Part shown: one piece after another, positions 36,398 to 43,410 of the stretch
Numbering within the stretch: position 1 is the first letter of the stretch
Layout: every line of letters starts with the position of its first letter
Assembly (NCBI GenBank): GCA_003135135.1
Contig: PLDK01000003.1
Location: 1,492-65,491 of the forward strand
DNA length: 64,000 nucleotides
Direction: 5' to 3'
From: Deltaproteobacteria bacterium
GTDB taxonomy: Bacteria; Desulfobacterota; Binatia; Binatales; Binataceae
Program-made: the position numbers and the translations under genes
The notes under the pieces: model-generated
What the model saw: the letters and a program-made list of their open reading frames with translations, nothing else
Database searches by the model: none
What the model was told of the DNA's origin: nothing

Positions 36398-37372
36398 GTG
36401 CCTCGCGTTTCGGTAATCATTCCCGCGTACAACGCGGCCTCGACTATCGCCGGCACCTTGGACAGCGTAATCGGGCAGACCTTCCAGGATTTTGAAATCA
36501 TTTGCGTTGACGACGGCTCGACCGATCGAACCCGCGCAATCGTTGAACAGTACGCCCGGGACTGCGGCGACCGCCTGAGGCTTATCGAGCAGGCCAACAG
36601 CGGACCGGCGGCGGGGCGCAACAATGGCGCGCGGCATGCGACGGGCGAGTATCTCGCTTTTCTTGATGCCGACGACGTCTGGACGGCGCCGATGCTCGAG
36701 CGGACGGTGGCGGTTCTGGACGCCGCCCCCCTGCTCTCGCTGGTGTATTGCAACGCGGCGCTCGCCGACAGCGAAGGCGTGGCGCTGGATACGTCGCTGG
36801 TCGGCAAAGGCTTCGACCATCCGCCGTCGCTGCATGAACTGCTGACGCGGCTGTGGCCGATAATGCCGAGCGCGGCGCTGGTGCGGCGCTGCGCGTACGA
36901 AAAATGCGGCGGCTATCGCGACGAATTGCGCGGCGCGAGCTTCCGCTTCGAGGACGTAGATTTCTGGATCAAGATGCGCGAGCAGGGGCCGTTCGGCTAT
37001 ATCGCCGAGCCGCTGGTGATATGGCGGTTCGCATGGTTTCCGAAGCAGCTCAAGCGGTTGCCTGACTATTCGAAAGCGTTGCACGTTTTCGAGGCGTATC
37101 TGCAGGAGCGTTACGGGGTTTCCGCGGCGCCGCTGGTAAAGGCACGGACGCGGGCTCCACGGAGTATCCTGGCGACGATAGGATTGAAGGCGCTTCGCGA
37201 CGGCGATCGCCCCAGGGCGCGGGCGGCGTTCGCGCGCGCGATCAGGGTGGATCCCTACCGGCTGAAGAACTACCTGCGCTGGATGAGGACGTTTCTGCCG
37301 GATCGGCTGGCGCAGAATCTATCGGGTAAAAGTTCTCGGCGTGCTCGATCTGGCGGCGCGTATCAGGAATAA
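36398..37372 (+). CDS. Family 2 glycosyltransferase
   Basis: VSVIIPAYN...DDGSTD...LDADD (DxD) GT2 motifs. Confidence 0.8.
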   Translation: MPRVSVIIPAYNAASTIAGTLDSVIGQTFQDFEIICVDDGSTDRTRAIVEQYARDCGDRLRLIEQANSGPAAGRNNGARHATGEYLAFLDADDVWTAPMLERTVAVLDAAPLLSLVYCNAALADSEGVALDTSLVGKGFDHPPSLHELLTRLWPIMPSAALVRRCAYEKCGGYRDELRGASFRFEDVDFWIKMREQGPFGYIAEPLVIWRFAWFPKQLKRLPDYSKALHVFEAYLQERYGVSAAPLVKARTRAPRSILATIGLKALRDGDRPRARAAFARAIRVDPYRLKNYLRWMRTFLPDRLAQNLSGKSSRRARSGGAYQE

Positions 37373-37420
37373 ATAGACGGCGGATCGCTTTTCGCCTTTT
37401 CACTGTTGGAGGCATTTTCA

Positions 37421-38665
37421 ATGCGGGTGATTGTAACTGGCGGGGACGGCTACCTTGGATGGCCGCAGGCGATGTACTTGTCCAAGCGCGGCTACGAAGT
37501 ATGCGTGGTGGATAACTTCAGCCGCCGTCTATGGGACCTCGAATGCGGCACCGAGAGCCTGATTCCGATTGCGCCGCTGCAGGAGCGGGTGGCGGCGTGG
37601 CGCGAAAAAAGCGGCAAGACGCTACAGACGGCGATCGGCGATTTGACCGACTACCCTTTCTTCAGCGCCGTGGTCCGCGATTTCAAACCCGACGCAATCG
37701 TCCACTACGGCGAGCAGCGCAGCGCGCCATTTTCGATGATCGATCGGCGCCATTCGGTGCTCACCCAGGTCAACAATCTGGTCGGCACGCTCAACGCCGT
37801 TTACGCCGTCCGCGAGCATGTGCCGGAGTGCCACCTGGTCAAGCTCGGCACGATGGGCGAGTACGGAACCCCGAACATCGACATCGAAGAGGGGTTTATT
37901 GAGATTACGCACAACGGGCGCACCGACACCCTTCCCTATCCAAAGCAGCCGGGCTCGTTCTATCACCTGTCCAAGGTTCACGACTCGCACAATATCCAGT
38001 TCGCGTGCAAAATCTGGGGGATCCGGGCGACCGACCTCAACCAGGGCGTCGTTTACGGAATCGACACCGACGAGACGATGCTCGACGAGCGCCTCGCGAC
38101 GCGCTTCGACTACGACGGAATCTGGGGCACGGTGCTTAATCGGTTCTGTATCGAGGCTGCGATCGGGCATCCGCTAACCGTGCACGGCAAGGGCGGCCAG
38201 ACCCGCGGCTACCTGAACATCCGCGACACGATGCGATGCATCGAAATCGCGATCGAGAAACCGGCGAAGGCCGGCGAATACCGCGTCTTCAACCAGTTCA
38301 CCGAGCAGTTCTCGGTCGAGCAACTAGCGGAGCTGATCCAGGCTGCGGCGAAGCACAAGGGCCGCAGCGTCGAGATTCAGCATATCGCGGACCCGCGCGT
38401 CGAGGCCGAAGTCCACTACTACAACGCCAAGCACACCAAGCTCATCGACCTGGGCCTCAAGCCGCGCCTGCTGTCGGAGGTGCTGATCGATTCGATCTTC
38501 GACAAGGTCGAGCATTTCAAGCATCGCGTGAAGATGGATCGCATCGACGCGCTGGTGAACTGGCGGCGGATCAGCAATGCGGTCGGGTATGGATCGATGT
38601 CGTCGCCGGCGGCGCCCGCTGAGACTGAGCCCAAGCCCAAGGCGCGGGTATCCGGCACGCGGTAG
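37421..38665 (+). CDS. sqdB: UDP-sulfoquinovose synthase (SQD1/SqdB; UDP-glucose + sulfite to UDP-6-sulfoquinovose)
   Basis: Long identical blocks with plant SQD1: [97 protein letters not shown], and [16 protein letters not shown]. The GGAGG RBS supports a start at 37421. Confidence 0.85.
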
Positions 38666-41571: not shown

Positions 41572-42460
41572 CAGATATAGCTGCCTTTCGCTTATCGTGG
41601 CCAGCTTGTGGTGCGCGCGGTTTCTTCCACGCAGAGAGATCGATCGTAAGCAATTCCTCGAGCTCCTCGACTTCGGGGAGGTAGCGCTGACGCAGGCGCT
41701 CCTCCTGCTCGGGCGTCAGCCAGCCGAACGGCTCGCCGCGGCCGTGGCAGAAATCCCATACGCCCCAGCGGTCCAGAAGATTTATCGCGCCGTATGCCTG
41801 GCGGACCTTGAACCAGTACATCAAGCGCGTCGCGCTGCGTGCGAGCCTGCGATTTTTTGGCGCGCGATCGAACGAGTGCACATCGTCACGGATTTCGGGC
41901 CGCGCGGAAAGTGCAATCCGCTCGATGCCCATGAAATCGGTCACCCGATCCAGATACGACTGCGGCTGCGTGCGCAATTCATCATACATCGTGATGAGCA
42001 CGTTCTGGCGGCCGAAGTTTTCGAACCATTTGCGCAGATGGAATGCGTAGCGGTTGCCGCCGCCTAAACTGGGCCGGGATTTCAGGACCTCGTCGAACGA
42101 CCCGCGTGCCCAGGCGTAGTGCGCAACCAGTTTATAGACCGAAAACGAATGCTCGACGGGATCGCGCAGCGTGATGATTACCCGGCAGTTCGGAATGTAC
42201 GTCTTGATACGGTCGGGGGCGCGTGGTTCGAACAGGTATGGACAGATCTCGACGATCGGCCGCTGGCCGGTTGCGTAGCGAAAATGGCGCGCGTACCAGT
42301 CGATGCCCTTGTCGTAGTACGTGCTGAAAAACTGGGTCTCCTTGACGCCGTAAGGCAGATCGACGTGGCCTTCGAGCACGCGATGCAACCAGGTAGTGCC
42401 GGTGCGACCGGGACCGGCGCCGATGATCTCAGGGAGCCGATGTTTGATGGTTGCGCTCAT
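41522..42460 (-). CDS. Sulfotransferase-family protein (paralogue)
   Basis: GPGRTGTTWL and RDPVEHSFSVY. The start at MSATIK forms an ATGA overlap with the upstream sulfotransferase stop; the ORF extends to 42532. Confidence 0.8.
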   Translation of the reverse strand: MSATIKHRLPEIIGAGPGRTGTTWLHRVLEGHVDLPYGVKETQFFSTYYDKGIDWYARHFRYATGQRPIVEICPYLFEPRAPDRIKTYIPNCRVIITLRDPVEHSFSVYKLVAHYAWARGSFDEVLKSRPSLGGGNRYAFHLRKWFENFGRQNVLITMYDELRTQPQSYLDRVTDFMGIERIALSARPEIRDDVHSFDRAPKNRRLARSATRLMYWFKVRQAYGAINLLDRWGVWDFCHGRGEPFGWLTPEQEERLRQRYLPEVEELEELLTIDLSAWKKPRAPQAGHDKRKAAISGARAISRDDLRDSIVK

Positions 42461-43410
42461 CCGTTGGCTAGTCGCTGCAGCCGGGGCGCCGGGGAAGTAT
42501 CGATAGTGCGCGGCGAGCGCGATTTCTTCCACGCGGAGAGATCGATCATCAGCAATTCCTCGAGCGCTTCGACCTCGGGCAGAAAGCGCGCGCGCAAGCG
42601 CTCATCCTGCTCGGGAGTAAGGCCCGGAAATAGCTCGCCGCGCCCGTGGCAGAACTCCCACACGCCCGCGCGCTCGAGCAGGTTGATAAGGCGATATGCC
42701 TGATGGCCCCTGAGCCAGTACATGAACCTGGTCGCTTTGCGCGCGAGTTTGCGGTTCTTGGGCGCACGAGCAAAAGCATTCACATCGCCACTGAGATCGG
42801 GGCGCGGCGAGAGCACGACTCGCTCGGCGCTCATAAAGTCGCAAACCCGATTCACATAGCTCTGCGGATCCGCGCGCAATTCATCATATATCGTGACCAG
42901 GACGTTCTCGCGGCCGAAGTTCTCGAACCATGTCTCGAGACGCGCCGCGTAGCGGTTGGCGCCACCCAGATGCGGCAACGCTTTGAGGGCCTCGTCGAAG
43001 GTTCCGCGACGCACCCATCCGTAATGACGCTGAAGCTTGTACGCAGAATAGATTCGATCGACCGGATCGCGCATCGTCGCGACGATCCTGCAGTTCGGGA
43101 TGTGGGTCTTGATGCGTTCGGGCGCCAGCGGATGGAAAAAATACGGGCAGATTTCGGCGATCGTGCGATCGCCGGTCGCGTAGCGAAAATGGCGCGCGTA
43201 CCAGTCGATACCCTTGTCGTAAAACGTGTTGAAGAACTGGGTTTCCTTGACGCCGCAGGGCATGTCGACCGCATCGCGCAGCGCGTTGTAAAGCCAGGTC
43301 GAACCGGTGCGCGGCGGCCCGATTACGATAACGTCGGGGAGCCTCGAGGGGCGCGCTCTTCGCATTGCGGGCGATACAGAGTTCAAAGATTGTGGCTTAG
43401 CGATGATCAT
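42457..43410 (-). CDS. Sulfotransferase-family protein (paralogue)
   Basis: GPPRTGSTWL and RDPVDRIYSAY. Confidence 0.8.
   Translation of the reverse strand: MIIAKPQSLNSVSPAMRRARPSRLPDVIVIGPPRTGSTWLYNALRDAVDMPCGVKETQFFNTFYDKGIDWYARHFRYATGDRTIAEICPYFFHPLAPERIKTHIPNCRIVATMRDPVDRIYSAYKLQRHYGWVRRGTFDEALKALPHLGGANRYAARLETWFENFGRENVLVTIYDELRADPQSYVNRVCDFMSAERVVLSPRPDLSGDVNAFARAPKNRKLARKATRFMYWLRGHQAYRLINLLERAGVWEFCHGRGELFPGLTPEQDERLRARFLPEVEALEELLMIDLSAWKKSRSPRTIDTSPAPRLQRLANG

Follow-up and report, generated by a model that had tools for sequence, protein, structure and literature searches.

Positions 36398-43410 of a 64-kb stretch of DNA from an uncultured member of the Binataceae (contig PLDK01000003.1 of assembly GCA_003135135.1, positions 1,492 to 65,491; hereafter the window) hold an island of seven genes in which a UDP-sulfoquinovose synthase of the SQD1/SqdB type stands beside three family 2 glycosyltransferases (GT2a, GT2b and GT2c) and three sulfotransferases (ST1, ST2 and ST3). 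By its sequence SqdB is a bona fide UDP-sulfoquinovose synthase, and we give about even chances to the reading that the island is a two-operon, cytoplasmic glycan-decoration system whose oligosaccharide carries both sulfoquinovose and O-sulfate, and which does not make the classical sulfolipid alpha-sulfoquinovosyldiacylglycerol (SQDG). The product would probably be a strongly negatively charged cell-envelope glycan instead of that sulfolipid. The kinds of enzyme involved are known; the combination of SqdB with a dedicated GT2, a variable set of sulfotransferases and GT2 enzymes, and a sulfotransferase paralogue in the lipid A operon is undescribed. A full-text literature search returned no paper on Binatota with sulfoquinovose or a sulfotransferase, and none joining sqdB with a sulfotransferase and a glycosyltransferase, in agreement with the original prediction that such a bacterial locus is uncharacterised.

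The SqdB gene and its GT2 partner

The ORF listing and Pfam matches placed all seven genes, with the predicted domains, at the expected coordinates as intact open reading frames (ORFs) in two convergent units (Table 1). The plus-strand unit comprises GT2a and SqdB, and the minus-strand unit reads, 5' to 3', ST3, ST2, ST1, GT2c, GT2b. Because neighbouring minus-strand genes either overlap or lie within 10 nt of each other (10 nt between GT2c and GT2b, 9 nt between GT2c and ST1, the other junctions overlapping), we treat them as one operon; the 4-nt ATGA overlap of the ST2 start with the ST3 stop suggests that these two genes may be translationally coupled. The island had been predicted as a single 'sulfo' locus, and the genes are all there, but they form two transcription units, each of which can occur alone. 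Hydrophobic or transmembrane spans were found in 0 of the seven proteins. GC content is uniform across the region (~0.60) and thus gives no sign of recent foreign origin.

Residues 1-385 of SqdB align without gaps to Arabidopsis SQD1 (PDB 1i24/1qrr; phmmer E 4.8e-173, 579 bits) with 240/385 (62%) identical positions, so the homology is as unusually strong as had been claimed, far more than chance could give. The next PDB families, tyvelose epimerase, UDP-glucuronate decarboxylase and GalE, follow at E ~1e-8 or worse (best 9e-9). The NAD-binding motif GxxGxxG is present as G7-x-x-G10-x-x-G13, and SqdB residues H95, R100, T144, M145, Y181, H182 and K185 are all identical in SQD1, the short-chain dehydrogenase/reductase triad T144/Y181/K185 corresponding to T145/Y182/K186 of the plant enzyme. 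Residue roles are taken from the Sulfolobus enzyme Agl3, which is inactivated by alanine at His95, Arg101 or Met145 (PMC4388408). Neither a GalE-like grouping nor a loss of SQD1 residues was seen, as expected of a true SQD1-type enzyme. Against the NCBIfam model UDPsulfquin_syn (NF041015) SqdB scored 493.6 bits, under the 575-bit equivalog cut-off, and so failed the formal test. NF041015 is by far its top NCBIfam family (runner-up E 3e-11), and in view of the 62% identity to SQD1 we read the shortfall as that of a narrowly trained model and not as a sign of another function. SqdB homologues are labelled UDP-sulfoquinovose synthase by the Joint Genome Institute (JGI). Given the identity and the kept catalytic residues, the expected product is UDP-alpha-D-sulfoquinovose. 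The listed ORF opens at TTG 37406; JGI starts the gene at ATG 37421, which also fits the alignment with SQD1.

For SqdB, GT2a and ST3 alike, the closest homologues with a name belong to Candidatus Binatus or Binataceae metagenome-assembled genomes (MAGs), and the window is assigned to Ca. Binatus (Binatota). Island proteins recur in hundreds of metagenome contigs at 63-100% identity; one JGI metagenome contig of 128 kb and 43 assembly blocks encode exactly the same SqdB protein. When GTDB species representatives were searched with an alignment of sulfotransferases, the 58 loci recovered all came from Binataceae-type MAGs. We mapped the island across loci by tblastn with the window proteins as queries, a map that does not show other kinds of gene, and called an island complete when both boundary genes were present (n = 28 Binataceae loci). 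All 28 lie at a single syntenic site between the orf294-ChrA pair and a sigma-54 activator. From left to right, ChrA and orf294 are transcribed leftwards; the next operon, rightwards, consists of GabT (where present), two to five sulfotransferases and one to three GT2b/c genes; and SqdB, GT2a and the activator follow, all leftwards.

SqdB is present in 22/28 complete islands. A GT2a orthologue (at least 70% identity) accompanies it in 21 of these 22 and occurs in none of the six islands that lack SqdB (0/6); the lone SqdB island without one is a frameshifted nanopore MAG. GT2a orthologues always lie directly upstream of SqdB, and the pair is kept at 74-97% identity across the Binataceae. At the equivalent position the six SqdB-less islands carry a different GT2 paralogue, 50-55% identical. 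Two loci, L002 and L003, have GT2a (74% identity) and SqdB (81% identity) without sulfotransferases, and sulfotransferase/GT2 islands without SqdB occur at L011, L036-38, L041, L051 and L055-60. Co-occurrence and these two loci together make GT2a plus SqdB the firm unit, to which the ST/GT2b/c operon is usually, not always, attached.

The three GT2 proteins are paralogues (GT2a-GT2b 43%, GT2b-GT2c 44% and GT2a-GT2c 36% identity) with DxD motifs LDADD in GT2a and GT2b and LDDDD in GT2c. Since the similarity includes a C-terminal helical region common to all three, they may act on one class of acceptor. The AlphaFold model of GT2a (predicted local distance difference test, pLDDT, 89) shows a GT-A fold with a C-terminal helical bundle and matched GT2 structures in the PDB at E 5e-18 (Foldseek). 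Its closest folds are those of GalT1/CgT, SpsA, K4CP, WrtF, AvpGT (PglI-type) and TarS/RmlT, which are glycan-elongating GT2 enzymes, and the island GT2 genes resemble these and chondroitin/heparosan synthase domains. We rejected a polyprenyl-phosphate role of the ArnC/GtrB/DPM1 kind: C-terminal transmembrane helices are absent, and the ArnC-type matches (E 3e-7 to 1e-8 and 6e-5) are weaker than those to EpsE, TuaG, K4CP and GalT1. Enzymes of CAZy family GT2 are inverting, and with a UDP-alpha-sulfoquinovose donor a beta-sulfoquinoside is therefore expected. GT2a, a soluble inverting GT-A protein, is thus our candidate UDP-sulfoquinovose transferase. Neither a GT4 (SqdX/SQD2) nor a GT8 (SqdD) gene appeared when ORFs of the window were scanned, or among the gene calls of loci L001 and L005-L007, where the boundary genes enclose just sulfotransferase, GT2, SqdB or GabT genes; for the other loci the tblastn map, limited to its window queries, gives that set of genes too. 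The absence of a GT4 partner had been predicted, and the conserved partner is GT2a.

Sulfotransferases of the island and of the lipid A operon

ST1, ST2 and ST3 each match PF00685 and PF13469 above the Pfam cut-offs (E 1e-14 to 1e-20); these two are their sole Pfam matches, with no Stf0 domain among them. The three are paralogues at 45-65% identity, ST2 and ST3 being 65% identical, and conserve (G/P)P(G/P)RTG(T/S)TW and R(D/N)PV(D/E)xxxSxYK. In ST1 the 5'-phosphosulfate-binding loop reads GPGRTGTTW and the 3'-phosphate-binding motif RNPVERIYSAY. The PDB structures nearest to ST3 are 3rnl, heparan-sulfate 3-O-sulfotransferases and the sulfotransferase domain of N-deacetylase/N-sulfotransferase (NDST). 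ST1-3 are accordingly classed, on motifs and homology, as carbohydrate sulfotransferases of the heparan-sulfate type that depend on 3'-phosphoadenosine 5'-phosphosulfate (PAPS). The number of copies per island ranges from 2 to 5 for sulfotransferases and from 1 to 3 for GT2b/c, variation between species as expected if the product is a surface structure under diversifying selection.

A fourth paralogue, STx, is 56% identical to ST2 and to ST3, a closeness equal to that of ST1, and was found in an operon for outer-membrane and lipid A functions with the order BamA-Skp-FabZ-LpxA-LpxI-Gfo/MocA-(SCO1, PCYCGC)-STx-LpxB::MsbA-KdtA-LpxK-GT87. The arrangement is kept in six Binatus genomes, among them the MAGs with L009 and L010, which are the window's nearest relatives. 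This operon position suggests that STx may sulfate lipid A or the inner core. At L047 LpxB and MsbA read as a single fused ORF of 1017 aa.

In most relatives the sulfotransferase operon is headed by a class-III aminotransferase, which is GabT (TIGR00700, 597 bits, above cut-off). A role in an amino-sugar or amino-lipid step was considered, and the gene was then treated as a neighbour because of its GabT identity and its absence from the window.

Table 1. Genes and promoter-like sites of the island, with related features at other loci (positions are those of the window unless a locus is named).
Feature	Location	Strand	Assignment and basis
GT2a	36398..37372	+	PF00535, E 5e-37
SqdB	37421..38665	+	SQD1/SqdB-type UDP-sulfoquinovose synthase, 414 aa
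GT2b	38751..39692 (ORF to 39716; 39692 = JGI start)	-	PF00535, E 7e-34; last gene of minus-strand operon
GT2c	39703..40623	-	PF00535, E 6.5e-36
ST1	40633..41553 (ORF to 41571)	-	PF00685 3.6e-18, PF13469 9e-16
ST2	41522..42460 (ORF to 42532)	-	PF00685 and PF13469
ST3	42457..43410	-	PF00685 9e-20, PF13469; first gene of minus-strand operon
Promoter upstream of GT2a	36312..36341	+	sigma-70-like, TTGAGC-N18-TAACCT; sequence reading and alignment
Promoter-like site 44 nt upstream of ST3	43454..43482	-	TTGATA-17-TATCGT (with TG); single consensus match
Sigma-54 activator	32357..33580	+	PspF-like, no receiver domain; Pfam; right-hand syntenic boundary of island
STx	L047 10001-10891; also L044, L045, L046, L050, L061		between LpxI/Gfo-MocA and LpxB
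GT-C protein	L008 5278-6783	+	ArnT/PMT_2-like, multi-span, N-terminal S/TxDE motif
GT-C protein	L008 12220-13644	-	ArnT/PMT_2-like, multi-span, N-terminal S/TxDE motif
GT-C protein	L004 1658-3538		ArnT/PMT_2-like, multi-span, N-terminal S/TxDE motif

Possible products and acceptors

In the pathway that we propose, SqdB would make UDP-sulfoquinovose from UDP-glucose and sulfite, the step with very strong homology behind it. GT2a would then transfer sulfoquinovose in beta linkage onto an acceptor sugar, GT2b and GT2c would add further sugars, and ST1-3 would O-sulfate the resulting short oligosaccharide with PAPS as donor. Scanned ORFs of the window and the gene calls of L001 and L005-L007 gave no match to a phosphoglycosyl transferase, to Wzx/Wzy, to an ABC exporter or to a membrane synthase. 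The lack of transmembrane spans and of a primer transferase, flippase, polymerase or exporter argues for assembly at the cytoplasmic face on a pre-existing membrane-anchored acceptor. That acceptor could be lipid A carrying 3-deoxy-D-manno-oct-2-ulosonic acid (Kdo) or the lipopolysaccharide (LPS) core, with export by the general LPS flippase MsbA. In LPS core assembly soluble GT2 enzymes decorate the core on the cytoplasmic side and MsbA then flips it, so that no dedicated exporter is needed, which would explain why one is missing. The negative charge of such an LPS would come from its sulfonate and sulfate groups. We favour lipid A or LPS core as the acceptor tentatively, at somewhat less than even chances; diacylglycerol or another lipid anchor is a further candidate.

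The STx gene in the lipid A operon favours LPS over a protein glycan of the archaeal type, and neither an STT3/AglB-like oligosaccharyltransferase nor a membrane glycosyltransferase was found in the window island. The original prediction is partly supported: a sulfoquinovose product other than SQDG fits the GT2 partner and the expected beta linkage, and the archaeal-type protein glycan is disfavoured by STx. Distant SqdB loci add LPS-like contexts: at L008 a Kdo/WaaP-family kinase and two ArnT/PMT_2-like GT-C proteins surround the GT2 genes, and at L068 SqdB lies in a sialic-acid/heptose-type glycan cluster that ends in a GT9 heptosyltransferase. GT-C proteins were seen at the distant loci L004 and L008 only, where they may point to transfer in the periplasm. 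In its most specific form, a Binataceae LPS or lipooligosaccharide core, possibly with lipid A through STx, would bear beta-sulfoquinovose and several O-sulfates; this we regard as possible, if rather doubtful.

Several points weigh against the proposal, its LPS link included. The link to LPS comes from the STx paralogue and the context of distant loci and not from the island itself; the 64-kb window holds no waa, lpx or msbA genes, and the host organism is uncultured. The acceptor specificity of GT2 enzymes is not readable from sequence or fold, and for GT2a the fold search returned just generic glycan-elongating GT2 enzymes. LpsS, the one LPS sulfotransferase that has been characterised, is of another family, Stf0 (PMC12445080). 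PAPS synthesis and Wzx/Wzy or ABC exporters, for which the original prediction had proposed a search, did not turn up in the window: PAPS-synthesis genes, including cysNC, are absent from its scanned ORFs, as are the exporters. A canonical sqdX or sqdD could lie elsewhere in the genome, the search having covered the window and the fetched islands. Finally, the two operons are separable in evolution and may therefore act on different molecules.

That separability carries the first of the alternatives, in which two unrelated pathways share one syntenic hotspot: GT2a and SqdB would make a sulfoquinovosyl lipid, for example a phosphate-sparing one resembling beta-sulfoquinovosyl-diacylglycerol, and the ST/GT2 operon would make or modify a separate sulfated glycan. 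The units converge, with a promoter-like site for each; L002/L003 have GT2a-SqdB and no sulfotransferases, and 6/28 complete loci have sulfotransferases and GT2 genes and no SqdB. At L067 a distant SqdB adjoins a GT21-like lipid glycosyltransferase, and cyanobacterial MgdA is a GT2-family enzyme that acts on diacylglycerol. The two units are nevertheless adjacent in 22/28 complete islands, and GT2a is a close paralogue of GT2b and GT2c, with the C-terminal domain in common, and has no hydrophobic or evident lipid-binding segment. Where SqdB and GT2a are missing, the 50-55% identical GT2 paralogue takes the same position, which looks like an exchange of modules within one pathway. We consider two separate pathways unlikely.

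The island could also supply sugar-decorating steps for a sulfated polysaccharide, secreted or capsular, or for an S-layer or pilin glycan, with the primer transferase, flippase/polymerase or oligosaccharyltransferase genes unlinked, as a bacterial analogue of cyanobacterial sulfated extracellular polysaccharide (EPS) or of the Sulfolobus sulfoquinovose N-glycan. Beta-sulfoquinovose does occur in that N-glycan (PMC8993221), and sulfated capsules with clustered sulfotransferases are on record (PMC11641403). The likeness of the GT2 proteins to chondroitin/heparosan synthase domains and of the sulfotransferases to heparan-sulfate enzymes points the same way, and variation in copy number suits a surface polymer. 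Polysaccharide loci normally keep their primer and export genes together, however, and a primer, Wzx/Wzy, exporter, synthase or oligosaccharyltransferase was unseen in the window and in the 28 islands (these mostly by tblastn with window queries). With the STx context favouring lipid A as well, a polysaccharide or protein glycan also seems improbable to us.

Ordinary SQDG synthesis, with SqdB supplying an unlinked SqdX or SqdD and neighbours that have nothing to do with sulfoquinovose, is very unlikely. SqdB is best known from SQDG synthesis, a distant homologue at L069 adjoins a GT4, and the search for GT4 and GT8 was limited to the window and the fetched islands. What counts against it is the strict adjacency and co-occurrence of GT2a with SqdB (21/22 versus 0/6), even where the loci have nothing else in common, and the finding of no GT4 or GT8 gene in the Binataceae islands that were fetched. 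A soluble sulfated glycoside (an osmolyte or secondary metabolite) in place of an envelope component would suit enzymes that are all soluble and lack visible export machinery, and it is scarcely credible, since the island has no polyketide synthase, nonribosomal peptide synthetase, terpene or sugar-phosphate synthase scaffold genes, the fold relatives of the GT2 proteins use glycan or polymer acceptors and STx sits in the lipid A operon.

Gene neighbourhood, known systems and significance

The sigma-70-like promoter upstream of GT2a contains a motif, CCGTTGAGC...GTGTAACCT, that is kept in an alignment of ~25 orthologous loci. The site upstream of ST3 is plausible by position only, its match count being no higher than expected by chance for the region. 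As the sigma-54 activator adjoins GT2a in most loci, control by this protein was considered. In all loci the 400 nt before GT2a and before the leading gene of the ST operon were scanned for sites of the type TGGCAC-N5-TTGC (GG/GC required, at least 8/11 matches), and neither operon had a conserved match in any locus; no GG-N10-GC element was found upstream of GT2a. A TGGCAC at 36321 was discarded as a sigma-54 site because the GC at -12 is missing and conservation is lacking; sigma-54 control by the adjoining activator was rejected, no sigma-54 promoter having been found and the conserved element being sigma-70-like. A second PspF-like activator without an N-terminal receiver or sensor domain is encoded at 4131-5291 (-).

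A divergent pair of haem-copper oxidase genes (COX2, 160 aa, and COX1, ~553 aa, with weak CoxB/CtaD scores) at 33982-36122 (+) separates the activator from GT2a only in the window and the two loci closest to it, an insertion that leaves the GT2a promoter intact. The spacer at 36123-36300 contains hairpins and an 11-bp inverted repeat, CAGGGTGTTGA...TCAACACCCTG. An Rfam scan of 32-46 kb gave whalefall-1 alone, a sub-threshold match in this spacer that we put down to chance. A 321-aa ORF antisense to GT2a, at 36119-37084 (-), is most probably spurious, as is common in DNA of 60% GC; JGI annotates no more than a 60-aa gene, at the 3' end of this ORF.

At their left edge, almost all islands that extend so far carry orf294 (43739-44623, +), a 294-aa protein conserved at 62-98% identity for which no Pfam, NCBIfam or PDB match was found. 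It is followed by a split pair of CHR-family (chromate/oxyanion) transporter genes at 44559-45230 and 45251-45769 (+). Because chromate is an analogue of sulfate, this pair could conceivably be linked to sulfate supply. Tandem DUF1329/LolA-like paralogues of ~457 aa lie at 45883-47256 and 47531-48907 (-), and the family also flanks the islands of relatives. Elsewhere in the window, positions 24336-31802 encode an asparagine-synthase homologue (650 aa), a PRMT/PrmA-like methyltransferase (380 aa), a P-loop protein, a 331-aa protein without a family and an NTP_transf_5 (PF14907) protein, a set reminiscent of a cluster for ribosomally synthesized, post-translationally modified peptides of the lasso type. 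Tad/Flp pilus genes occupy 7059-12694 (-): two TadB/C-like T2SSF proteins, a TadA ATPase, a ParA/TadZ-like protein and RcpC/CpaB.

The island shares its first enzyme with the SQDG pathways of plants and cyanobacteria and of Rhodobacter (sqdA-D), SqdB being 62% identical to SQD1. SqdX/SQD2 (GT4) and SqdD (GT8) are retaining enzymes that yield alpha-SQDG, whereas the partner here is an inverting GT2 for which a beta linkage is expected. The island adds two further GT2 enzymes and three sulfotransferases, and its host belongs to a non-photosynthetic, uncultured soil phylum.

To our knowledge the only sulfoquinovose glycan is the Sulfolobus N-glycan, and we know of no LPS core with sulfoquinovose. 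In the N-glycan, sulfoquinovose is beta-1,3-linked (PMC8993221). The Agl3 pathway of Sulfolobus acidocaldarius resembles our proposal in that UDP-sulfoquinovose serves an oligosaccharide and not SQDG, in beta linkage (PMC8993221, PMC4388408), and in that synthase and glycosyltransferase genes lie in one cluster. There the glycan is carried by S-layer and archaellin proteins, after assembly on dolichol phosphate and transfer by AglB; Agl1, proposed as the sulfoquinovose transferase, is bound to the membrane (PMC4388408). In contrast, the island GT2 proteins are soluble, no oligosaccharyltransferase was seen beside them, O-sulfotransferases are added, and SqdB lies much closer to plant SQD1 than is demanded by the archaeal NCBIfam-type model (493.6 bits, cut-off 575 bits).

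LPS core assembly offers a likeness in its soluble or peripheral glycosyltransferases, the lack of a dedicated exporter and strain-variable gene content; unlike core loci, the island is not joined to waa or lpx genes in the window, and the link runs through the context of the paralogue. A Gram-negative soil precedent is LpsS of Sinorhizobium meliloti, a cytoplasmic PAPS-dependent LPS sulfotransferase (PMC12445080, citing Cronan & Keating 2004). LpsS is a single gene of the Stf0 family (PMC12445080) with no sulfoquinovose or glycosyltransferase set, whereas the island sulfotransferases are of the PF00685/PF13469 type. Loci for sulfated EPS and capsules (for example cyanobacterial ones and that for the capsular polysaccharide of Vibrio sp. 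KMM 8419, PMC11641403) combine glycosyltransferases and sulfotransferases as the island does. Such loci have Wzx/Wzy or ABC export and primer genes, of which none was seen in the island, and no SqdB.

Distant SqdB homologues (68-77% identity, in uncultured bacteria) have varied partners: besides the glycan cluster at L068 and the GT21-like neighbour at L067, they include a GT4 with a PAPS reductase at L069 and GT2 genes beside sat/cysC at L004. This variety implies that bacterial use of sulfoquinovose beyond SQDG may exceed the picture in the literature, where full-text searches gave nothing on it. Few organosulfur compounds are more abundant than sulfoquinovose, and making it is nearly always taken to mean making photosynthetic SQDG. 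If our proposal is true, the island would make the first bacterial sulfoquinovose glycoconjugate besides SQDG, through a new, beta-linking GT2 class of sulfoquinovosyltransferase, and would widen the biological sources and chemical forms of sulfoquinovose in soil sulfur cycling. The negative charge of the envelope would then be based on sulfur and not on phosphate, in an island that varies between species like an O-antigen locus. For a widespread, non-photosynthetic phylum of soil and peat, a module of two to seven soluble enzymes that yields sulfonated or sulfated envelope glycans could spare phosphate and alter cation binding, phage recognition and tolerance of desiccation or acid.

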